Shown here in pieces: positions 2,731 to 11,440 of a stretch of 64,000 nt of DNA. The notes beneath the pieces were generated by a model. That model saw nothing but the letters and a program-made list of their open reading frames with translations, did not search any database and was not told the origin of the DNA. This DNA is from Alphaproteobacteria bacterium. GTDB lineage: Bacteria > Pseudomonadota > Alphaproteobacteria > UBA828. The DNA is taken from assembly GCA_965214705.1 (NCBI GenBank), contig OZ243972.1, positions 2,240,001-2,304,000 on the forward strand, in the 5' to 3' direction. The translations under genes and the position numbers were made by a program. Each line of letters opens with the position of its first letter. The first letter of the stretch is position 1.

Positions 2731-4935
2731 TTGACGAGCAAGCCGGCTCCCTTTCCGACCAGGGACGAGGTTCTGCGCTTTGTTCGGGAGAGTCCGGGCA
2801 AGACGGGAATGCGTGAGATTGCCCGCGCCTTCAACATCCGCGGCAACGACCGCGCCGCGCTGAAGGATCTCGTGCGCGCGCTGGAGGCGGAGGGCGCAAT
2901 CGACGCCCGCCGCACGCGGCGGCGCCCCGCCGGCACCCTGCCGTCGGTCACGGTGCTGGAGGTCGACGGGCTCGACCAGGACGGCGCGCTCACGGCTCGT
3001 CCGACGCGCTGGGACGAAGACGATCCGCCCCCGCGGATCACCCTCGACCCCGCCCCCCGCGGCGTGCCCGAGCCGGGGGAAGGCGATCGCGTGCTTGCGC
3101 GGCTCAGGCCCGCGCCCGATGGCGGCTACCTGGCGCGGCCCATGCGCGTGCTCGATGCCGGCCCCCGCCGGGTGGTCGGGGTCTTCCGCGCCACCGGTAG
3201 CGGCGGGGGCGTGATCGCGCCGGCCGAGCGCCGCGCCCGCCGCAGCCTCGCGGTGCCGGCGGAGCAGACAGCCGGCGCCCGCACGGGCGAGCTGGTGGTG
3301 GGCGAGACCGAGCCCGGCAGCCGCCTCGGGCTGGCCGACGCCAAAGTAATCGAGCGGCTGGGCGACGCGGACTCGCCCGGCGCGATCAGCCTCGCCGCGA
3401 TCCACGCCCACGACCTACCGTTCCGCTTCTCCGACGCGGCGCTGGCGGAGGCGGAGCGTGCAACGCCGCCGGGCCTCGACGGACGCGCCGACCTGCGGAC
3501 GCTGCCTCTCGTGACCATCGACGGCGCGGACGCCCGCGATTTCGACGACGCGGTCTGGGCCGAGCCCGATCCATCGCCCGACAACAATGGCGGCTGGCGC
3601 GCTCTCGTCGCCATCGCCGACGTGGCCCACTACGTGCGGCCCGGCAGCGCCCTCGACAAGGCGGCGCAGGAGCGCGGCAACTCCACCTACTTCCCCGATC
3701 GCGTGGTGCCGATGCTGCCGGAGGCGCTCTCCGCCGAGCTCTGCTCGCTGAAGCCGGATGTCGACCGCGCCTGCCTCGCCGCGCACCTCCGCATCGACGC
3801 CGAGGGCGAACTACGCGACTGGCGCTTCGAGCGCGCGCTCATGCGCTCAGCCGCCCGGCTCACCTACGACGAGGTTCAGGCCGCCGCCGAGCGCGACGGC
3901 GAGGGCCTGGCGGCGCCGGTTCGTGCCTCGATCGCCGCGCTCTACGGCGTCTACGGCGCGCTCAAGGCAGCGCGCGACCGGCGCGGCGCGCTCGACCTGG
4001 AGCTGCCGGAGCGTGAGATCACGCTGGCAGAGGACGGCACGGTCGCCCGCATCGGCTTCGCCCGCCGCCACGACAGCCACCGCCTGATCGAGGAGCTGAT
4101 GATCGCGGCCAACGTCGCCGCCGCCAGCGCCCTCGAAGCCAAGCGCATGCCCTGCGTGTACCGCGTCCACGACCGGCCCGATACCGCGAAGCTGGACGTG
4201 CTGCGCGAGTTCCTCCGTAGCCGCGGGATCGCTCTGCCGCGCGGCGGGGCCATCCGTCCCGACGCCTTCAATCGCTTCCTCGCCCTGCTCGAGAACCCGC
4301 GCGATGCCGGCATCGCCAGCCTGATGATCCTGCGCGCCCAGGCGCAGGCCGCCTACAGCCCGCGCAACATCGGCCACTACGGGCTCGGCCTCGTGCGCTA
4401 TGCCCACTTCACTTCGCCCATCCGCCGCTATGCCGACCTGCTGGTGCATCGCGCCCTGATCGACGCTCATGACCTCGGGTCGGGCGGGCATGGCCGCACC
4501 GAACCGGAGGCGCTGGAGCGCATCGGCACGCACATTTCCTCCACCGAGCGGCACGCGCAGGCCGCCGAGCGCGATGCCGGGGATCGCTATTGCGCCGCCT
4601 ATCTGGCCGATCGCGTGGACGCCGAGTTCTCCGGCCGCATCGCGGGCGTGACGCGATTCGGCATCTTCGTCGCCCTCGACGAGACCGGCGCCGAGGGCCT
4701 GGTGCCTGGCGCGACCCTCGGCGCCGCCCGTCCGCGTTTCGACTCCCGCCGGCACTCGCTCGCGGTCGACGGCCGCGTGCTGCGACTGGGCGATTCGGTG
4801 ACCGTGACGCTCCGCGAGGCCGATCCCGTGGCCGGCGGCCTCGTCTTCTCGCTCTCTGCCGTGAACGGCGAGGCCTGGGAGTCGTCGCGGGGCCATGACG
4901 GCGGGCGGCGCGGAAGGCCGCGGCGGCGGCGCTGA
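2731..4935 (+). CDS. rnr: Ribonuclease R
   Basis: TIDGADARDFDDA RNB motif, HFTSPIRRYADL, C-terminal S1 domain; TTG start; follows topA. Confidence 0.95.
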   Translation: MTSKPAPFPTRDEVLRFVRESPGKTGMREIARAFNIRGNDRAALKDLVRALEAEGAIDARRTRRRPAGTLPSVTVLEVDGLDQDGALTARPTRWDEDDPPPRITLDPAPRGVPEPGEGDRVLARLRPAPDGGYLARPMRVLDAGPRRVVGVFRATGSGGGVIAPAERRARRSLAVPAEQTAGARTGELVVGETEPGSRLGLADAKVIERLGDADSPGAISLAAIHAHDLPFRFSDAALAEAERATPPGLDGRADLRTLPLVTIDGADARDFDDAVWAEPDPSPDNNGGWRALVAIADVAHYVRPGSALDKAAQERGNSTYFPDRVVPMLPEALSAELCSLKPDVDRACLAAHLRIDAEGELRDWRFERALMRSAARLTYDEVQAAAERDGEGLAAPVRASIAALYGVYGALKAARDRRGALDLELPEREITLAEDGTVARIGFARRHDSHRLIEELMIAANVAAASALEAKRMPCVYRVHDRPDTAKLDVLREFLRSRGIALPRGGAIRPDAFNRFLALLENPRDAGIASLMILRAQAQAAYSPRNIGHYGLGLVRYAHFTSPIRRYADLLVHRALIDAHDLGSGGHGRTEPEALERIGTHISSTERHAQAAERDAGDRYCAAYLADRVDAEFSGRIAGVTRFGIFVALDETGAEGLVPGATLGAARPRFDSRRHSLAVDGRVLRLGDSVTVTLREADPVAGGLVFSLSAVNGEAWESSRGHDGGRRGRPRRRR

Positions 4936-4937
4936 TC

Positions 4938-6149
4938 GTGTCCCCCGCCCGCACCCGTTGGGACATCGTGGCCCTCGCCTTCACGGCCGGCTACATGGTG
5001 GGCATGCAGGTCGGCAAGGTGCCGCCCGCGCTGCCGATGCTGGAGGCGGAGCTCGCCCTGCCCCGCGTCATCGCGGGGCTGATCGCGTCATCCTTCTACG
5101 GCCTCGGCGCGGTCCTGGGCGTTGCCGGCGGGGTGATAGTCGACCGGGCGGGCATCGGGCGCATGGTCTTCGTGGGCGGCGCCGTGATGGCCTGCGCGAG
5201 CCTCGCCGGCGGCTTCGCGGAGAACGGGGCGCAACTGCTCGCGGCCCGCGTCGTCGAAGGCTTCGGCTTCGCCACCCTCACGGTCGCCGGGCCCAAGATG
5301 CTCGTCGCCGCGACCGATCCCGGCGTGCGCCGCTTCGTCCTCGGCGTCTGGGGCACCTACATGCCGGTCGGCATCGCGCTCTCGCTGGTGATCGCGACGG
5401 TGCTGCTGGAGACGGTCGGCTGGCGCGGTCTCTGGTTCATCAATACCGGGCTTATCTTGCTCTTCCTCGTGACTTTCGCTTGGGTCGCGGCGCCGGGGCG
5501 CTGGCAGATGCCGGCGGCGGTCAGCACGTTCGACCGCGCCGGCGTGCGCGCGACTCTGGCGCGGCCGGGACCGTGGCTTTTCGGCGTTGCCTTCGCGATA
5601 TTCGCCGTGCAGTGGCAGGCGCTGATGGCGTGGCTGCCCACCTTCCTGATCGAGACGCAAGGCCGCTCGGTCGAGGCTGCCGCGCTCTTCACCGCGCTCT
5701 TCGTCCTCGCCACCACTGTGGGCTCCGTAACCAGTGCGTGGCTCTTGCAGCGCGGCGTCGCGCGTTGGCTGCTGCTGGGCCTCACCTTCACAGGCATGGG
5801 CGTGTGCGCCGCGACGCTCTTCGCGCCCTTCACGCCTGTCGGCGCCAAGATCCCGCTGGCCGTCTGCTTCGCCTTGGCGGGTGGCCCGCTGCCCGCCGTC
5901 TGCTTCGAAGGCGGCATCGCCCACGCGCCAAGCCAGGCGCAGGTGGCGATGGCCGGCGGTTTCGTCGCGCAGGGAGCCGCGCTCGGCGCCGTGCTCGGCC
6001 CGCCGCTGCTGGCTGCGGTGACCGAGGCCCTGGGCGGTTGGGACGCCGCGTGGTGGACCATGCTGGTCTGGTCCTCCCTCGGCATGGCGGTCGTGGTCGG
6101 TGTGTGGCGGGCGGACGCACGTCTCGGGCGATTGCCGGCTGCGGCATGA
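4938..6149 (+). CDS. MFS transporter (CynX-like)
   Basis: 403 aa with about 12 hydrophobic segments; DRAGIGR resembles MFS motif A. Confidence 0.85.
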   Translation: MSPARTRWDIVALAFTAGYMVGMQVGKVPPALPMLEAELALPRVIAGLIASSFYGLGAVLGVAGGVIVDRAGIGRMVFVGGAVMACASLAGGFAENGAQLLAARVVEGFGFATLTVAGPKMLVAATDPGVRRFVLGVWGTYMPVGIALSLVIATVLLETVGWRGLWFINTGLILLFLVTFAWVAAPGRWQMPAAVSTFDRAGVRATLARPGPWLFGVAFAIFAVQWQALMAWLPTFLIETQGRSVEAAALFTALFVLATTVGSVTSAWLLQRGVARWLLLGLTFTGMGVCAATLFAPFTPVGAKIPLAVCFALAGGPLPAVCFEGGIAHAPSQAQVAMAGGFVAQGAALGAVLGPPLLAAVTEALGGWDAAWWTMLVWSSLGMAVVVGVWRADARLGRLPAAA

Positions 6150-7138
6150 TGGGCGGGCGCTCTCTGGTGCGCACCCTCATTGCAGCAGCCATGGTCGGCG
6201 CGCTGGCGCTGGCCTGCGGCTATGCGTTCGCGGCATCCACCTCACTCTCTGCGCGCCCGGTCGCCCTCGACCCCACCGACCGCACGGTGCAGCGCGTAGG
6301 CCGCCTGCACTTCCTTGGCGGGTTGGACCTGCGCAGCAAAGAGGCGGCATTCGGGGGTCTCTCCGGCCTCGATGTCACGTCCGACGGGCAACTCACCGCC
6401 ATCACCGACCGCGGCCACTGGTTTACCGCCCGCATCGTGCGGGACGATGCCGGACGCCTCGTGGGCCTGGCGGACGCCGCGCTGGGACCGCTACTCGACA
6501 CGAAGGGCCGGCCGCTGCAGGGTGAGTGGCGCGACGCCGAGGCACTGGAGCGCCTGCCGGGTGGCGACTGGCTGGTGAGCTTCGAGCAGCGTCACCGCGT
6601 CTGGCGCTACCCGGCGGAGACCGGCGGGCTGCAGGGCCGCCCCGCGCCTTTCCAGACGCCGAAGGGTATCGCGGCCGCCCCCGGCAACGGCGGGCTGGAG
6701 GCGCTCACGCCGCCTGCCGACGGCCGCATCCTGATGCTGGCGGAGAGCCTCGGGCGCGCCGGCGGCTCCCGCGCCGGCTGGGTCGTCGGTGAGGGCGGCG
6801 TCGAGCCCCTCGGCTACCGCACCGCGCGGGACTTCAAGCCGACCGATGCGGCCACCCTGCCCAACGGCGACATGCTCGTGCTTTCGCGCTATTTCAAGCT
6901 ACTCGGCGGCTTCAAGGCGCGGCTCGAGCGGATTCCCGCCGGCGCCATCGAAGGCGGCGCCGTGCTGAAGGGCGAGCTTCTCGCCCGCTTCGCACCGCCG
7001 CTCACTGTGGACAACTTCGAGGGCCTGGCGGTCACGCGCGATGCGGACGGCGCAACACTCGTCTACATCCTCTCCGACGACAACTTCCATTTCCTCCAGC
7101 GCACGCTCCTGCTCCTCTTCCGCCTGAACGAACCCTGA
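6146..7138 (+). CDS. Secreted 'esterase-like activity of phytase' family protein
   Basis: ATGA overlap with the MFS stop; signal-like N-terminus; FGGLSGL, DAEAL, DNFEGL and LSDDNF motifs. Confidence 0.8.
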   Translation: MMGGRSLVRTLIAAAMVGALALACGYAFAASTSLSARPVALDPTDRTVQRVGRLHFLGGLDLRSKEAAFGGLSGLDVTSDGQLTAITDRGHWFTARIVRDDAGRLVGLADAALGPLLDTKGRPLQGEWRDAEALERLPGGDWLVSFEQRHRVWRYPAETGGLQGRPAPFQTPKGIAAAPGNGGLEALTPPADGRILMLAESLGRAGGSRAGWVVGEGGVEPLGYRTARDFKPTDAATLPNGDMLVLSRYFKLLGGFKARLERIPAGAIEGGAVLKGELLARFAPPLTVDNFEGLAVTRDADGATLVYILSDDNFHFLQRTLLLLFRLNEP

Positions 7139-7215
7139 CAGCCGCAGTTCCGCGCGGCGCCCGGCCGATGGTGCTACCATCGGGCCGAGAGGCAGAGCGG
7201 CGCGGGCGGAGAGTT

Positions 7216-8499
7216 ATGGGCTACACGATCGCGGAAAAGATCATGGGGCGCGCGAGCCGGGCGGGCGCGCCAGTGCCGGCCGGCGCGGAAGTCGAGGTCA
7301 AGCCCGACTACGTGCTGGGCTACGACTTCCCCGGCTACCTCGACCTCATCTTCAAGCAGATGAAGGAGGAGTTCGGCATCGAGCGCGTCGCCGAGCCGGA
7401 ACGCTACGCCCTCTTTATCGACCACATGGTGCCAGCCAACTCGCCCGAGGAGGAGGAACTGCACATCGTCACCCGCACCTGGTGCGCGGAGAACGGCGTC
7501 AGGCTGCACGAGCGCGAAGGCATCGGCCATCAGGTGGCGGCGGAAGCGGGCTACGCGGTACCCGGCGGCTTCGTCGTCCACTTCGACGGCCACATCGCGC
7601 AGCTCGGCGCCTTCGGCACGCTCGCCATCGGCATCCACACGCAGCTGCTGGAGGCCTTCGTCCGCGAGCGCATCGACTTCACCGTGCCCGAGACCACGCG
7701 GGTCAACCTCACCGGCACGCTTAGCCCCGGCGTCATGGCGCGCGACGTGTTCCACCACCTGGTGCGCGTGCTCGGGCCCCGCTCCTGCCGCTTTCAGGTG
7801 CTGGAGCTGGGCGGGCCGGCACTGGGCGACATTTCGCTGGAAGGGCGCCAGACCATCACTGGCCTCGCCATGTTCACCGGCGCGCTCACCGCGATCTGCA
7901 ACCCGGACCAGCTGGCCCTCGACTACGCACGCGCCCACGTGGCCCAACCCTTCGAGCCGCAGGCGAGCGACGAGGACGCCACCTACGCCGCGCTGCACGA
8001 GGTCGACCTGACCGATCTCGCGCCCATTGTCGTGGTGCCGCCCAACCCCGCCGCCACCGCCGATCTCGCGGACCACGCCGGGCTCGAAGTCCAGGCCGGC
8101 TATCTCGGCTCCTGCGCCTCCGGCCGGCTGGAGGACCTGCGCGCCGCCGCGGCGGTGCTCAAGGGCCGCCGCGTCGCGCCGGGATTCCAGCTCCACATCG
8201 TGCCGACGAGCCAGGCGATCATGGCCGACGCCGCCCGCGAGGGCCTGCTGACCACGCTGATCGAGGCCGGCGCCTTCGTCACCTCGTCGTCGTGCGACTA
8301 CTGCTACGGGCGGATCGCCACCATGACCGCCGGCCAGCGTGCGGTCTCCACCGGCACGCTCAACGTCACCGGGCGCATGGGGAGCCCGGATTCCGAGATC
8401 TATCTCTGCAATGCAGCGGCGGTGGCGGCATCGGCGCTGGAAGGGCGGATCGCCGACCCCCGCCCCTACCTCGCCGAAGGTATGGAGACTCGCCCGTGA
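7216..8499 (+). CDS. Aconitase-family large subunit (LeuC/HacA/DmdA-like, divergent)
   Basis: TIAEKI, IDH, GIGHQ, GSCASGR and SSCDYC (three Fe-S Cys), GRMG. Confidence 0.88.
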   Translation: MGYTIAEKIMGRASRAGAPVPAGAEVEVKPDYVLGYDFPGYLDLIFKQMKEEFGIERVAEPERYALFIDHMVPANSPEEEELHIVTRTWCAENGVRLHEREGIGHQVAAEAGYAVPGGFVVHFDGHIAQLGAFGTLAIGIHTQLLEAFVRERIDFTVPETTRVNLTGTLSPGVMARDVFHHLVRVLGPRSCRFQVLELGGPALGDISLEGRQTITGLAMFTGALTAICNPDQLALDYARAHVAQPFEPQASDEDATYAALHEVDLTDLAPIVVVPPNPAATADLADHAGLEVQAGYLGSCASGRLEDLRAAAAVLKGRRVAPGFQLHIVPTSQAIMADAAREGLLTTLIEAGAFVTSSSCDYCYGRIATMTAGQRAVSTGTLNVTGRMGSPDSEIYLCNAAAVAASALEGRIADPRPYLAEGMETRP

Positions 8500-9014
8500 G
8501 CCTCACTCCCCTGCGTGGCCGCGTCGCCTACGTCTTCGAGGAGGCGGACTTCGACGTGGACCAGATCGTGGGCGTCGAGAACATCCGCCTCACCGATCCC
8601 GACGCGCTCGCCACTTGCGCCATGCGCCGCTTCGACCCCGGCTTCGCGGAGAAGGTCGCGCCTGGCGACGTGGTCGTCGGCGCCGAGAATTTCGGATACG
8701 GCCATCCCCACTTCGCACCGATGATCGGGCTGCGCCATCTGGGCATCCGCGCCGTCATCGCGGACTCCTTCGCCACCGGCTACTGGCGGGAAGAGATCGC
8801 CGAGGGCTTCCCCCAGATCGCCTGCCCCGGCATCACCGGCCTCGTCCAGCGTTGGGACGAGATCGAGATCGAGTGGGATACTGCCGAAGTTCGCAACCTG
8901 AGCCGGGGCGGTGCGCTGGCCATCGCCCCCTATTCCACCGCCGAGCGCGGCATGCTTCAGGCCGGCGGCCTGATCCCCTACCTGCGCGAAAAGCTCGCCG
9001 CCGGCGGCGGCTGA
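8496..9014 (+). CDS. Aconitase-family small subunit (LeuD/HacB-like, divergent)
   Basis: GTGA overlap with the large subunit; DVDQI, GAENFGYG, VIADSFA, AGGL motifs. Confidence 0.85.
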   Translation: MSLTPLRGRVAYVFEEADFDVDQIVGVENIRLTDPDALATCAMRRFDPGFAEKVAPGDVVVGAENFGYGHPHFAPMIGLRHLGIRAVIADSFATGYWREEIAEGFPQIACPGITGLVQRWDEIEIEWDTAEVRNLSRGGALAIAPYSTAERGMLQAGGLIPYLREKLAAGGG

Positions 9015-9020
9015 GTCCTT

Positions 9021-9482
9021 TTACGATCCGGAGCGGTACTTCTCCGGCATCTGCGGGCTGTTGGCCGGATTGGTGTCGTGCTTGGCGAGCCGGGTCACCA
9101 CGCCGACGCCCACCAGCGGCGCGAGCGCGTCCCCCAGGGCGTCCGCCTTGTCCTTGGCGTAGACCTCCGCGCCGGCGACATGGATCGAGAACGATTTTTG
9201 GTACTTCGCCTGCTTGGCCGGGTCAGCGATCACCGCCTTGGTCCAGGCATAGAGGGGATAGTGCTCGATGCCGTGCTCCTCGGCCTCCGCGCAATAGCCG
9301 GCAAAGGCGTCGTATTGGCAGATCAGTCGCGCATCGTGGGCGGCGAGAATGTCCCGCAGCGGCCCGAGCCCCGGATGCTCCCCGCCGGCGCGCGCCGCCT
9401 CAGCGGCATCCTCCGCCAGATCGACGCGAAGCTGGTATTGCCACTGCTCCGCCGTCTCAGGCGCCAACGGCTCTTCCGCCAT
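9021..9482 (-). CDS. Hypothetical protein (153 aa)
   Basis: ATG preceded by GGAGG; globular-looking sequence (QYDAFAGY, YPLYAWTKA, HDTNPAN). Confidence 0.75.
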   Translation of the reverse strand: MAEEPLAPETAEQWQYQLRVDLAEDAAEAARAGGEHPGLGPLRDILAAHDARLICQYDAFAGYCAEAEEHGIEHYPLYAWTKAVIADPAKQAKYQKSFSIHVAGAEVYAKDKADALGDALAPLVGVGVVTRLAKHDTNPANSPQMPEKYRSGS

Positions 9483-9578
9483 ACGAGTGCCTCCATTCCG
9501 CGCGCTCGCGCTGCGCGCCCATGGTGACGCGTCTCCCTGCCCCGCGCCAACGGCGAATCGTCCGCTATGATGCGCGGC

Positions 9579-10442
9579 ATGCGCTATGAGGAACCCTTGG
9601 TCGCGCCCAACGGCGACCGCTTCGTTCTGATCGAGTTCGGCGACGACGGCGGGCTCCGGCTCAACCTGCAGGCCCGCGGCTTCGCCAGGGCCGTGGACGA
9701 GGCCCGCATTCCCGGCGTGATCGAGACCAATCCGGGCTTCAACTCCGTGCTCATCGAGTACGACTGGCAGCGCATCGCCTACGACGACCTCGTGCGCGAG
9801 GCGCTGGCGCTGGCCGACGCGGTGGGGACTCCCGACGAGATCGAAAGCCGGCTGGTCCACGTGCCCACCCTCTACCTCGACCCCTGGACCCGCGCCTGCA
9901 TGGAGGAGTACCACCGCACCATCAAGGAGCGGCCCTACGACCCCGAGTTCATCGTGGCGGAGAACGGGCTCTCCGGCCTCGACGAGCTGGTTGCGCTCCA
10001 TTCGGCGACCGAGTACTGGATCGGCATCATCGGCGCCTATCCCGGCCTGCCGCTCATGCGCCCGCTCGACCCGCGCTGCATCATCTACGCGCCCAAGTAC
10101 GACCCGCCCCGCATGTGGACGCCCCAAGGCGCGGTGGTCTGCGCCGGCGGCCAGAGCGCGATCCAGACCCTGCACTCGCCCGGCGGCTTCAACATGATCG
10201 GCCGCACGCCGCTCCCGATGCTGGACCCGGAGGGACGCATCCCGGCCTTCGGCGGCGGCATCGCGCTGCTCCGCGTCGGCGATCGCATCAAGTTCGATCC
10301 CATTGACCGCAGCGAATACGACCGCATCGAGGCGAAGCTGGCGGAAGGCACCTACCCCTTCAACATCGTCGAGTATCAGCGCTTCTCCCTATCCGCCTAC
10401 GAGGCCTGGGTGGCGACGCTCGACGCGGAGCAGAGGCACTGA
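9579..10442 (+). CDS. Carboxyltransferase subunit (PxpB/KipI, allophanate hydrolase subunit 1-like)
   Basis: GDRFVLIEFG, APKYDPPRMWTPQGAV, SPGGFNMIGRTP, GDRIKF; start at 9579 chosen because TATGAT lies 7 nt upstream (alternative 9567). Confidence 0.85.
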   Translation: MRYEEPLVAPNGDRFVLIEFGDDGGLRLNLQARGFARAVDEARIPGVIETNPGFNSVLIEYDWQRIAYDDLVREALALADAVGTPDEIESRLVHVPTLYLDPWTRACMEEYHRTIKERPYDPEFIVAENGLSGLDELVALHSATEYWIGIIGAYPGLPLMRPLDPRCIIYAPKYDPPRMWTPQGAVVCAGGQSAIQTLHSPGGFNMIGRTPLPMLDPEGRIPAFGGGIALLRVGDRIKFDPIDRSEYDRIEAKLAEGTYPFNIVEYQRFSLSAYEAWVATLDAEQRH

Positions 10443-10456
10443 GCGCGACGCCCGTC

Positions 10457-11440
10457 ATGGAGGTGCTGAAGCCCGGCCTGGAGACCACGGTCCAGGACTA
10501 TCCGGGCCGTGTCGGCGTGGTCAGCACCGGCTACCCGATCTCGGGCCCGATGGACGGCTGGTCCTTCCGCATCGCCAACCGCCTGGTGGGCAACGACGCC
10601 AGCGCCGCGGGGCTCGAATGCCAGTTCATCGGCCCCACCCTGCGCTTTCACGACGACCGCGTGGTCGCGATTTGTGGCGCCGAGATGCCCGCCGCGCTGG
10701 ATGGCACGCCCTTCGAGGGCTGGACCAGCATCGCGGTGCGCGCCGGCCAGACCGTGACACTGGGTTCGGCAACACGGGGCGCGCGCGCCTATCTCGCGGT
10801 CTCCGGCGGCATCGACGTGCCGCCCTTTCTGGGCTCACGCTCCACCTATCGCCTCGGGCAGATCGGAGGCGCCGGGGGAGAGCCGCTCAAGGCCGGGCAG
10901 CATCTGCCCCTCGGCCCCGGTGAGGGCACGCCGGGGCGCCGGGCCGCAGTTCACGCCCGGCCGCGCTTCCCCAATGACCGGATCTGGTCGGTCGAGGCGG
11001 TGCCGGGGCCCAGGGAGGACTGGATCGACGAGGCCGGCCACGCCCGCTTCCTGACGCACGACTGGCGCGTCTCCGCCCACAGCAACCGGGTGGGGGTGCG
11101 CCTCGAAGGGCCGGAGTGGACCTTCACCCGCCGCGCCTACGACAAGTCGCCGGAGAACGGCACGCACCCCTCCAACATCATCGAGCACGGCTATGGCCTC
11201 GGCTCGATCAACCTCTGCGGCCAGACGCCCATCGTCCTCGGGCCGGACGGCCTCACCCTCGGCGGCTTCATCAACCCCTACACCGTGCCGACCGGCTCGC
11301 TCTGGAAGCCCGGTCAGGCGCGGCCCGGCGACATCTTCCGCTTCCGCGCCGTCAGCGTGCGCGAGGCGCAGGAGGCCCGCGCCGCGCTCGATGCGCTTTG
11401 CGCAGCACCCGACGCCATCGAGGAGATCGGCGCAGGCTGA
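10457..11440 (+). CDS. Carboxyltransferase subunit (PxpC/KipA, allophanate hydrolase subunit 2-like)
   Basis: PGLETTVQD, SGPMD, ANRLVGN, GARAYLAVSGG, SNRVGVRL, DGLTLGG. Confidence 0.88.
   Translation: MEVLKPGLETTVQDYPGRVGVVSTGYPISGPMDGWSFRIANRLVGNDASAAGLECQFIGPTLRFHDDRVVAICGAEMPAALDGTPFEGWTSIAVRAGQTVTLGSATRGARAYLAVSGGIDVPPFLGSRSTYRLGQIGGAGGEPLKAGQHLPLGPGEGTPGRRAAVHARPRFPNDRIWSVEAVPGPREDWIDEAGHARFLTHDWRVSAHSNRVGVRLEGPEWTFTRRAYDKSPENGTHPSNIIEHGYGLGSINLCGQTPIVLGPDGLTLGGFINPYTVPTGSLWKPGQARPGDIFRFRAVSVREAQEARAALDALCAAPDAIEEIGAG

Follow-up and report, generated by a model that had tools for sequence, protein, structure and literature searches.

A widespread family of LeuCD-like proteins combines an intact iron–sulfur site with a rewired active site

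Here, we examined two overlapping genes in a 64,000-nucleotide stretch (the window; coordinates count from its first nucleotide) of an alphaproteobacterial genome of the UBA828 lineage (GenBank assembly GCA_965214705.1, contig OZ243972.1, positions 2,240,001 to 2,304,000), with a G+C content of about 69%. The first gene (7216-8499, forward strand) encodes a LeuC/HacA-like large subunit of 427 aa, comprising aconitase domains 1-3, and the second (8496-9014, forward strand) encodes a LeuD-like small subunit of 172 aa, comprising aconitase domain 4; by its predicted proteins, the pair is archaeal-type LeuC/LeuD-like, with two subunits. Our analysis suggests that their product is a heterodimeric, [4Fe-4S]-binding member of the isopropylmalate-isomerase/homoaconitase branch, belonging to an old, widespread sister family (the HxH family, defined below) in which the position of the catalytic serine is occupied by histidine. 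The large-subunit gene starts with ATG, 4 bases downstream of a GGAG motif (7208-7211), and the small-subunit gene with GTG, 8 bases downstream of GGAG at 8484-8487. Both frames are intact, as noted in a preliminary description of this DNA, and they overlap, the small-subunit start and the large-subunit TGA stop being fused as GTGA. A mechanical list of open reading frames (ORFs) offers longer starts, at 7168 for the large and 8292 for the small subunit; for both, however, alignments with the proteins of relatives begin at residue 1 of the shorter form, which, in the case of the small subunit, supports the start at 8496.

The closest solved structures are those of the Methanocaldococcus jannaschii isopropylmalate/citramalate isomerase LeuCD (4nqy and 4kp1 for the large subunit, 3vba for the small one), with 4nqy_A matching the large subunit at 243 bits (E 4e-71) and 3vba_A the small subunit at 110 bits (E 1e-30); the architecture and the subunit lengths are alike as well. 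Second best are the methanogen homoaconitase HacAB structures (4kp2, 2pkp; 194 and 79 bits), alike in fold and architecture. A Pfam scan of both proteins yielded PF00330 and PF00694 only, with no AcnX family: PF00330 matches the large subunit at 210.6 bits (cut-off 28.7), and PF00694 the small one at 21.7 bits, just short of its cut-off of 22.8, the homology of this subunit being clear from the 3vba match. None of the NCBIfam cut-offs for LeuC, LeuD, HacA, or HacB is reached by either protein. Among the NCBIfam models, the large subunit comes nearest to a generic one, the ‘aconitase/IPM dehydratase large subunit family’ (346 against a cut-off of 385), and the small subunit narrowly misses TIGR02087, the ‘LeuD/DmdB family’ (108 against 108.95). 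The equivalogs of 3-isopropylmalate dehydratase LeuC/LeuD (EC 4.2.1.33; TIGR02083, 261 vs 611; TIGR00170, 151 vs 560; TIGR02084, 76 vs 246) and those of HacA/HacB (NF040615, 235 vs 550; NF040604, 90 vs 230) are missed by a wide margin. The genome has bona fide genes for both subunits, leuC (760 bits vs 560) and leuD (248 vs 116), which are adjacent to each other on another contig; thus, the pair is not needed for leucine synthesis.

Active-site residues were identified from HMMER alignments to 4nqy and 3vba, which are free of gaps at the motifs, and classical residue numbers were read from the alignment to pig mitochondrial aconitase (1aco). The iron–sulfur site is preserved: the equivalents of the cluster ligands Cys358, Cys421, and Cys424 are C300, in GSC300ASGR (8107-8127), and C360 and C363, in C360-D-Y-C363 (8293-8304), and all three are invariant in the 54 HxH and 9 canonical rows compared. 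Asp100-His101 is retained as D69-H70 of an IDH motif (7420-7425; alignment to 4nqy), conserved in HxH and canonical rows, in agreement with the preliminary description, which had reported the Fe-S cysteines and the DH histidine as kept. Also retained are His147 (H105, in the GHQ motif), Asp165 (D124), His167 (H126), Asn448 (N383), and Arg452 (R387).

By contrast, at least five substrate contacts of the large subunit differ from those of 1aco. In H122-F-D124-G125-H126 (7579-7593), Ser166 is replaced by glycine between the retained Asp165 and His167; G216-L-A-M-F220 (7861-7875) stands in place of N258-M-x-x-E262, so that Asn258 and Glu262 become G216 and F220; and in S378-T-G-T381-L382-N383-V-T-G-R387 (8347-8376), Asn446 and Arg447 are replaced by T381 and L382. 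Relative to 4nqy, the motifs thus change from DSHT to DGHI, NMAIE to GLAMF, GSCTN to GSCAS, PSCSAC to SSCDYC, and STSNRNF to STGTLNV; each of the large-subunit substitutions listed in the preliminary description, including the loss of a carboxylate-binding Arg, was reproduced in a gap-free alignment. The small-subunit replacement it had placed at 8694-8720 is exact: G67-Y-G-H70-P71-H72-F-A-P is found there for G-C-G-S-S-R-E-H-A, in gap-free alignment to three solved LeuD/HacB chains (3vba, 2pkp, 1v7l), so that Ser642, Ser643, and Arg644 correspond to His, Pro, and His, with His70 at the position of the domain-4 general base. Taken together, the substrate contacts DSH(T)/NMxxE/NRNF/GSSRE are replaced by DGHI/GLAMF/TLNV/GHPHF; a DTD motif of M. 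jannaschii LeuCD also reads DVD, and the same catalytic and contact replacements set the window pair apart from HacAB.

The losses are accompanied by gains. Seven large-subunit residues, Tyr36, Glu110, His122, Arg176, His180, Asp361, and Ser390, are invariant or nearly so in the HxH family and different or variable in canonical proteins, the canonical counterparts being Gly at His122, Lys at Arg176, and Leu at His180; the phenylalanine at F220 is present in 96% of the HxH rows, with Glu in 9 of 9 canonical rows. In the small subunit, the family-specific residues are His70 and His72, the invariance of which is circular because the HxH rows were picked by the G-H-x-H motif itself. Given that the same changes recur in all relatives examined, the pattern is far more than chance.

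In textbooks, the aconitase family stands for catalysis by an Fe-S Lewis acid acting together with a serine-alkoxide base. In aconitase, Asp100-His101, His147, Asp165, and His167 handle the leaving hydroxyl, and Arg447 and Arg644 bind the substrate carboxylates; Ser642, we assume, is the first serine of the GSSRE motif. In a 2021 survey, Ser642 is the general base and the cluster the Lewis acid, and, of the eight aconitase subfamilies distinguished, all have a serine assigned or proposed in this role, which is given for aconitase, AcnD, HACN, and IPMI and proposed also for AcnX (PMC8184944). AcnX, described in another paper as then the sole functionally unannotated member of the superfamily (PMC5144071), provides a precedent for hydro-lyases that act on non-tricarboxylates with a largely re-invented site, some of them with two subunits (PMC8184944, PMC10040528). 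However, AcnX keeps a serine homologous to Ser642, the S70A variant being almost inactive according to the survey (PMC8184944), whereas the window protein lacks that serine.

To delimit the family, we required G-H-x-H in the small subunit and, in the large subunit, D[GAT]H and C-D-[YF]-C together with absence of the NMxxE Glu and of the NRN Arg; the window pair shows all these features, and they are likewise complete in 53 of 53 pairs from metagenomes and in both HxH pairs of a phylum-wide sample. A word-indexed search scored 7999 candidates and recovered 2438 relatives. The 120 best, which were examined, come from alpha- and beta-proteobacteria and are 70-96% identical; IDH is present in 120 of these, GLAMF and STGT.N in 119 each, the SC..C pair in 114, and FDGHI, in a pattern requiring Ile, in 77, and the first-cysteine motif reads GSCAS in 113, GSCVS in 6, and GSCAA in 1. 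With one genome scanned per species, 307 relatives came to light; 80 were kept, among them Variovorax, Pseudacidovorax, Xenophilus, Ramlibacter, Paraburkholderia, and Cupriavidus, as well as Alsobacter, Microvirga, Tianweitania, Borborobacter, Mesorhizobium, and Marivibrio. An exhaustive HMMER search with the small subunit retrieved 1807 cluster representatives (50% identity) at E<=0.001, among which NFGYGHPH or near variants of the G-H-x-H type can be followed to about 35% identity; the distant HxH homologs include proteins of Actinomycetota, Bacillota, Spirochaetes, and Anaerolineae, under generic names only.

The changes in the two subunits are coupled. Metagenome contigs were scanned for DNA able to encode NFGYGHPH, yielding at least 120 matches, and 80 loci were taken, so that large subunits entered this set solely through the small-subunit DNA motif. 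A near-complete large subunit, 33-95% identical to that of the window, lies just upstream in 53 of the 80. Every one of these 53 has D[G/A/T]H instead of DSH, lacks the NMxxE Glu (..AMF, ..VMF, or INY), lacks the NRN Arg (xLN or xIN), and retains the three cysteines, nearly all within GSCASGR and C-D-[Y/F]-C. A contrast sample of 401 genomes across the phylum contained 12 with a small-subunit match at E<=1e-8: besides the window genome, 2 HxH pairs (56% identity, one family) have large subunits of the DGH/..AMF/TLN type, and the small subunits of canonical GSSRE type, 9 in number, all have a large-subunit partner with DSH/NMxxE/NRNF; the remaining pair, a third variant, combines a GGGGK small with an NESH large subunit. 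In a FastTree phylogeny of 105 full-length small-subunit representatives and the window protein (106 rows), a split with local support of 96 separates 57 rows (47 SSR, 10 other) from 49 (33 HxH, 13 xxH, 3 other), with the window inside a 21-row clade, 19 of them HxH (support 99). An IQ-TREE quick search with 40 large subunits places the 30 HxH-partnered sequences on one side (SH-aLRT 100) and 9 canonical plus 1 other on the opposite side; long end branches (L156, L117) make the deepest placements unsure. Thus, the subunits change together and both separate from the canonical proteins on trees, and the co-occurrence of motifs of the DGH, TLNV, and GHPH types in a conserved clade, which the preliminary description had proposed to check, is seen in all 53 metagenomic pairs and on both trees. 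The third-variant pair (L090:4260-6075, on G256:C4) has NESH and NYCSD in a large subunit that retains NRN; further LeuD-like proteins of non-canonical type, GGGGK (L090, P0231, P0247, P0267) and GSHRE (P0185, P0264, P0266), may represent other unstudied subfamilies.

Both genes evolve under strong constraint. The ratio of nonsynonymous to synonymous substitution rates (dN/dS), calculated with exclusion of pairs with a gapped or no BLASTN alignment, is 0.05-0.10 for the large gene (against lineage mates L006, L007, and L021) and 0.09-0.16 for the small gene (L006, L007, L010, L014, and L021). The concern that the substitutions might be private to this genome is dispelled by their recurrence in homologs down to 33% identity, and this co-occurrence, together with purifying selection, shows that they do not reflect decay; a pseudogene was accordingly rejected on the dN/dS of 0.05-0.16 and the conservation across the clade. 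In an order-level sample, 22 of 49 genomes carry the pair. Within the genus, it is present in 17 of the 20 genomes besides that of the window; the count for the family is 21 of 43, and that for the sister family 0 of 5. The window assembly, at 7.9 Mb with an estimated contamination of 8.7%, is larger than the other 20 genomes of the genus (2.8-6.3 Mb).

Gene neighbourhoods of relatives point to a metabolic context. Neighbours (ORFs of at least 110 aa within 6 kb) were clustered for the window and 38 of the 80 genome loci, the 42 left out being mostly near-identical lineage mates or short contigs. In 32 of these 39 loci, a gene of the PEP_mutase/isocitrate-lyase superfamily (290-300 aa) lies within 6 kb, usually directly downstream of the small subunit; in Variovorax, Pseudacidovorax, and Xenophilus, a LIV-type ABC transporter is inserted before it. 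Of the 33 metagenome loci that extend at least 2.6 kb upstream and at least 1.5 kb downstream of the pair, 26 likewise have the lyase-like gene, which is placed upstream in a subfamily of 48-51% identity, and Pfam detects it beside pairs only 36-45% identical to that of the window (L117, L119, L125). Its gating loop has the form EDQ..PK-R-C-P, with K[RK]CP most often as KRCPA (28) or KRCPI (11) and other forms fewer, as opposed to KRCGH in solved methylisocitrate lyases, and the protein reaches 152 bits on the PrpB equivalog (cut-off 354). The K-[RK]-C-P lyases constitute a subfamily of their own, represented by L066:9808-10695 and 44 other loci (e.g. L024:9783-10661), for which we found only generic names. 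With the cysteine kept in the loop, the partner protein is presumably a C-C lyase rather than a mutase; isocitrate-lyase-type enzymes cleave, and need, 2-hydroxy acids. Recurrent companions are a divergent IclR regulator and either LIV-type binding proteins, permeases, and ATPases or a TRAP or MFS transporter, and subsets of loci add an MBL-fold lactonase-like protein, oxidases linked to flavin adenine dinucleotide (FAD), or a 543-aa alpha/beta-hydrolase. The combination of pair, lyase, IclR regulator, and transporter looks like a two-step catabolic module.

The surroundings of the pair in the window are different. Upstream lie topA, the gene for RNase R, and a phytase-like gene. The small subunit is immediately followed by a convergent ORF of 153 aa (9021-9482, reverse strand) that has no Pfam or NCBIfam match and is conserved beside the pair in lineage mates, at 78% identity in L158 and 82% in L225. 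Next come PxpB-like (CT_C_D; 9567-10442, forward strand) and PxpC-like (CT_A_B; 10457-11440, forward strand) genes, which are also similar to the middle region of urea carboxylase; no LamB/YcsF (PxpA) gene is present in the window. Relatives at 71-84% identity (L018-L020, L022) likewise lack the lyase; hydantoinase/oxoprolinase A/B, LamB/YcsF, short-chain dehydrogenases, and esterases are found among the neighbours of their pairs, with LamB/YcsF and hydantoinase A/B in L022 and hydantoinase A in L019, so that a recurring link of lyase-less pairs to lactam-opening enzymes is possible. On the large-subunit tree, the window falls inside a 17-row clade (support 99) in which all other sampled members with enough flank carry the lyase, except for the near-copy L158. 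Because the window nests among lyase-carrying members, the linkage was, by parsimony, lost secondarily. The pair is kept under purifying selection despite the missing partners. Elsewhere in the genome, a PEP-mutase-type gene with the loop EDKLFPKTNS, located in a 591-aa open frame (L087, G000:C3:2228791-2229327), suggests phosphonate biosynthesis.

Within 6500-10000, no promoter-like site was found, a Rfam scan yielded no RNA family, and the single terminator-like site (9598-9619) compares with 0.8 expected by chance. Parts of the stretch are contained in sequencing runs labelled sponge metagenome. Contigs from relatives in one RNA-library run (X20) are 88-99% alike across 28 of 30 bins of 6900-9600, the bins at 9357-9538 being uncovered in both X20 and X8; these contigs, from which strand and level are not readable and which may stem from DNA carry-over, are a weak hint of transcription in the relatives.

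How might such an enzyme work? The interpretation of the pair as a rewired enzyme is supported as far as sequence goes, and we consider it probable, with some reserve, that it is an Fe-S hydro-lyase or isomerase that uses histidine as a base on a non-canonical organic acid and, in relatives, feeds the adjacent lyase; the presence of a cluster, the catalytic activity, the identity of the base, and the class of substrate are all predictions. Under this model, the free iron of the cluster and the retained Asp-His pairs would still activate a substrate hydroxyl or water, and one of the new histidines would take over proton abstraction from the lost serine. The substrate would be an organic acid devoid of the carboxylates normally held by Arg447 and Arg644, and, in most lineages, its product would be cleaved by the adjacent K-R-C-P enzyme of the isocitrate-lyase/phosphoenolpyruvate (PEP)-mutase family, completing a two-step catabolism. 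Joining these elements, we propose, tentatively and at slightly less than an even chance, that HxH is a ninth, unrecognised aconitase subfamily in which a histidine dyad beside the [4Fe-4S] cluster, possibly together with His122 and Asp361, replaced the serine-alkoxide base; that with the K-R-C-P lyase it forms a new two-step route for degrading an organic acid so far not known to support bacterial growth by such chemistry; and that the lineage of the window, with close relatives in runs labelled sponge metagenome, re-purposed the enzyme without the lyase.

Several observations weigh against this proposal. With the general-base serine missing, loss of activity is a real possibility, in light of the role given to this residue in the survey (PMC8184944), and the case for activity of any member is built from sequence comparison. 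The pair is dispensable in the genus: it was not found in 3 of the 20 genomes (62%, 100%, and 100% complete), and in L225 (G437:C6, about 4117-6128) an insertion of about 2 kb with a DDE-transposase ORF splits the small-subunit gene, with residues 1-68 and 21-171 flanking the insertion, so that the gene is partly duplicated. No counterparts of the lyase, the IclR regulator, or the transporter were found near the window pair, window-wide matches to the operon partners being confined to two ABC ATPases at about 55 kb and a weak alpha/beta-hydrolase at about 29.5 kb. Nor is there a K-R-C-P lyase among the genome’s five matches to the PEP-mutase/isocitrate-lyase family, which are at most 37% identical to the partner lyase; four have loops of the KKCGH, KRCGH, or PEP-mutase-type EDKLFPKTNS form, and a loop of this kind was not located in the fifth. 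Thus, for the lineage of the window, the pathway argument is borrowed from relatives. Furthermore, the most distant HxH pairs (33-45% identity: L102, L133, L156, L172, L177) come without the lyase and in other contexts, so that a single function of the family is not required; some lie beside genes for a CoA-transferase, a thiolase-like protein, and a 2-hydroxyacid dehydrogenase, others beside genes for enoyl-CoA hydratase, FAA-hydrolase, and acyl-CoA dehydrogenase, which is still acid catabolism, by a different pathway. In L102 and L177, metagenome contigs of which one is labelled human gut, a pair of 36% identity is flanked on one side by genes for a D-2-hydroxyacid dehydrogenase, a family III CoA-transferase, and a thiolase-like/DUF35 protein and on the other side by CitMHS and TAXI-TRAP transporters.

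Four alternatives were considered. An additional isopropylmalate isomerase or homoaconitase of the ordinary kind is suggested by the M. jannaschii enzymes being the best solved-structure matches of the pair and by the label of 3-isopropylmalate dehydratase that annotation sources attach to relatives, with only generic ‘putative 3-isopropylmalate dehydratase’ and ‘LeuD/DmdB’ clusters in the Protein Atlas. However, the defining catalytic residues are absent, every LeuC, LeuD, HacA, and HacB cut-off is missed, true leuCD genes reside elsewhere in the genome, and a Pfam scan of the neighbours found no leuA, leuB, or lysine genes; on the residues, the scores, and the presence of true leuCD, we rejected such an isozyme as exceedingly improbable. 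A second alternative is one of the already characterised LeuCD-like hydratases, DmdAB or HbzIJ, with a (di)methylmaleate- or maleate-type substrate. DmdAB is reportedly an Fe-S dimethylmaleate hydratase of nicotinate fermentation, encoded beside Dml, a dimethylmalate lyase of the isocitrate-lyase family, an arrangement which, as described, has the same gene logic as most HxH loci, where a LeuCD-like pair adjoins a lyase of this family; the near-threshold score of the small subunit on TIGR02087, named for DmdB, also fits. HbzIJ is said to be a two-subunit maleate hydratase of the gentisate pathway, followed by D-malate dehydrogenase with no isocitrate-lyase-family lyase, and thus resembles the window pair, by description, as a LeuCD-like hydratase in catabolism rather than amino-acid synthesis. 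Yet the partner lyase is no closer to the solved dimethylmalate lyase 3fa3 (97 bits, a weak match) than to methylisocitrate lyase (121 bits) and has K-R-C-P rather than KRCGH in its loop; the HxH operons belong to aerobic proteobacteria and include IclR regulators and transporters, with no lyase at all in the window; and no DmdA/DmdB or maleate-hydratase name appears among the homolog matches listed (120 in each of two listings). Besides, the canonical M. jannaschii LeuC enzyme, according to a review, has maleate hydratase activity (PMC8307300), so that a rewired site is not required for such a substrate. We regard an identity with these hydratases as unlikely.

The new residues could alternatively serve other chemistry on the cluster scaffold, such as decarboxylation, the elimination of an amine or thiol, or an isomerisation of the cis-trans or allylic type, possibly with a second metal site formed by the new histidines and Asp361. 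Four new histidines (H122 and H180 in the large and H70 and H72 in the small subunit), Asp361, and Tyr36 do appear as the base serine and two arginines vanish, and the lactam- and hydantoin-opening enzymes next to lyase-less pairs (PxpB/C-like in the window; L022; L019) hint at N-containing substrates, but these neighbours are up to 5 kb away and a shared operon is not established. Moreover, the hydroxyl-handling residues, equivalents of Asp100-His101, His147, Asp165, and His167, are all retained, and the conserved partner is of a lyase type that needs a 2-hydroxy acid; such chemistry is in our estimate rather unlikely. Still less probable is a non-catalytic derivative, either an Fe-S or metabolite sensor analogous to iron-regulatory proteins or a pseudoenzyme. 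Loss of the general base and of several substrate contacts, and the isolation of the pair from pathway partners in the lineage of the window, would be expected of such a protein. Strong purifying selection on both subunits, the invariance of active-site positions, replacements included, across 33-95% identity, the company of a transporter, a regulator, and the lyase that the pair keeps in catabolic operons of other lineages, and the absence of any nucleic-acid-binding or signalling domain in the Pfam scan of both proteins all argue for an enzyme instead.

An Fe-S hydro-lyase or isomerase with a histidine base thus being the reading that we favour, the HxH family emerges as widespread and conserved and appears not to have been studied, the comparison with DmdAB and HbzIJ, which might belong to it, having been made by description and not by sequence. 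Full-text literature searches, with supplementary files outside their scope, found no description or characterised member of the clade, the listed homolog matches carry generic names only, and two publications on related lyases concern the PrpB type only (PMC9804861, PMC8471276); the possibility that the clade had already been characterised, which the preliminary description had left open, found no support within these bounds.

If the proposal is correct, a large and strongly conserved family in which the cluster ligands stay while histidines take the places of the base and of the arginines that bind carboxylates would illustrate how an old catalytic scaffold changes its chemistry or the class of its substrate. 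The name ‘3-isopropylmalate dehydratase’ would then have to be corrected in thousands of database entries. Finally, the conserved pairing with an unusual gene of the isocitrate-lyase family would offer a testable handle on an unassigned catabolic pathway, the carriers of which include common bacteria of soil and water, such as Variovorax, Pseudacidovorax, Alsobacter, Microvirga, and Azospirillum.

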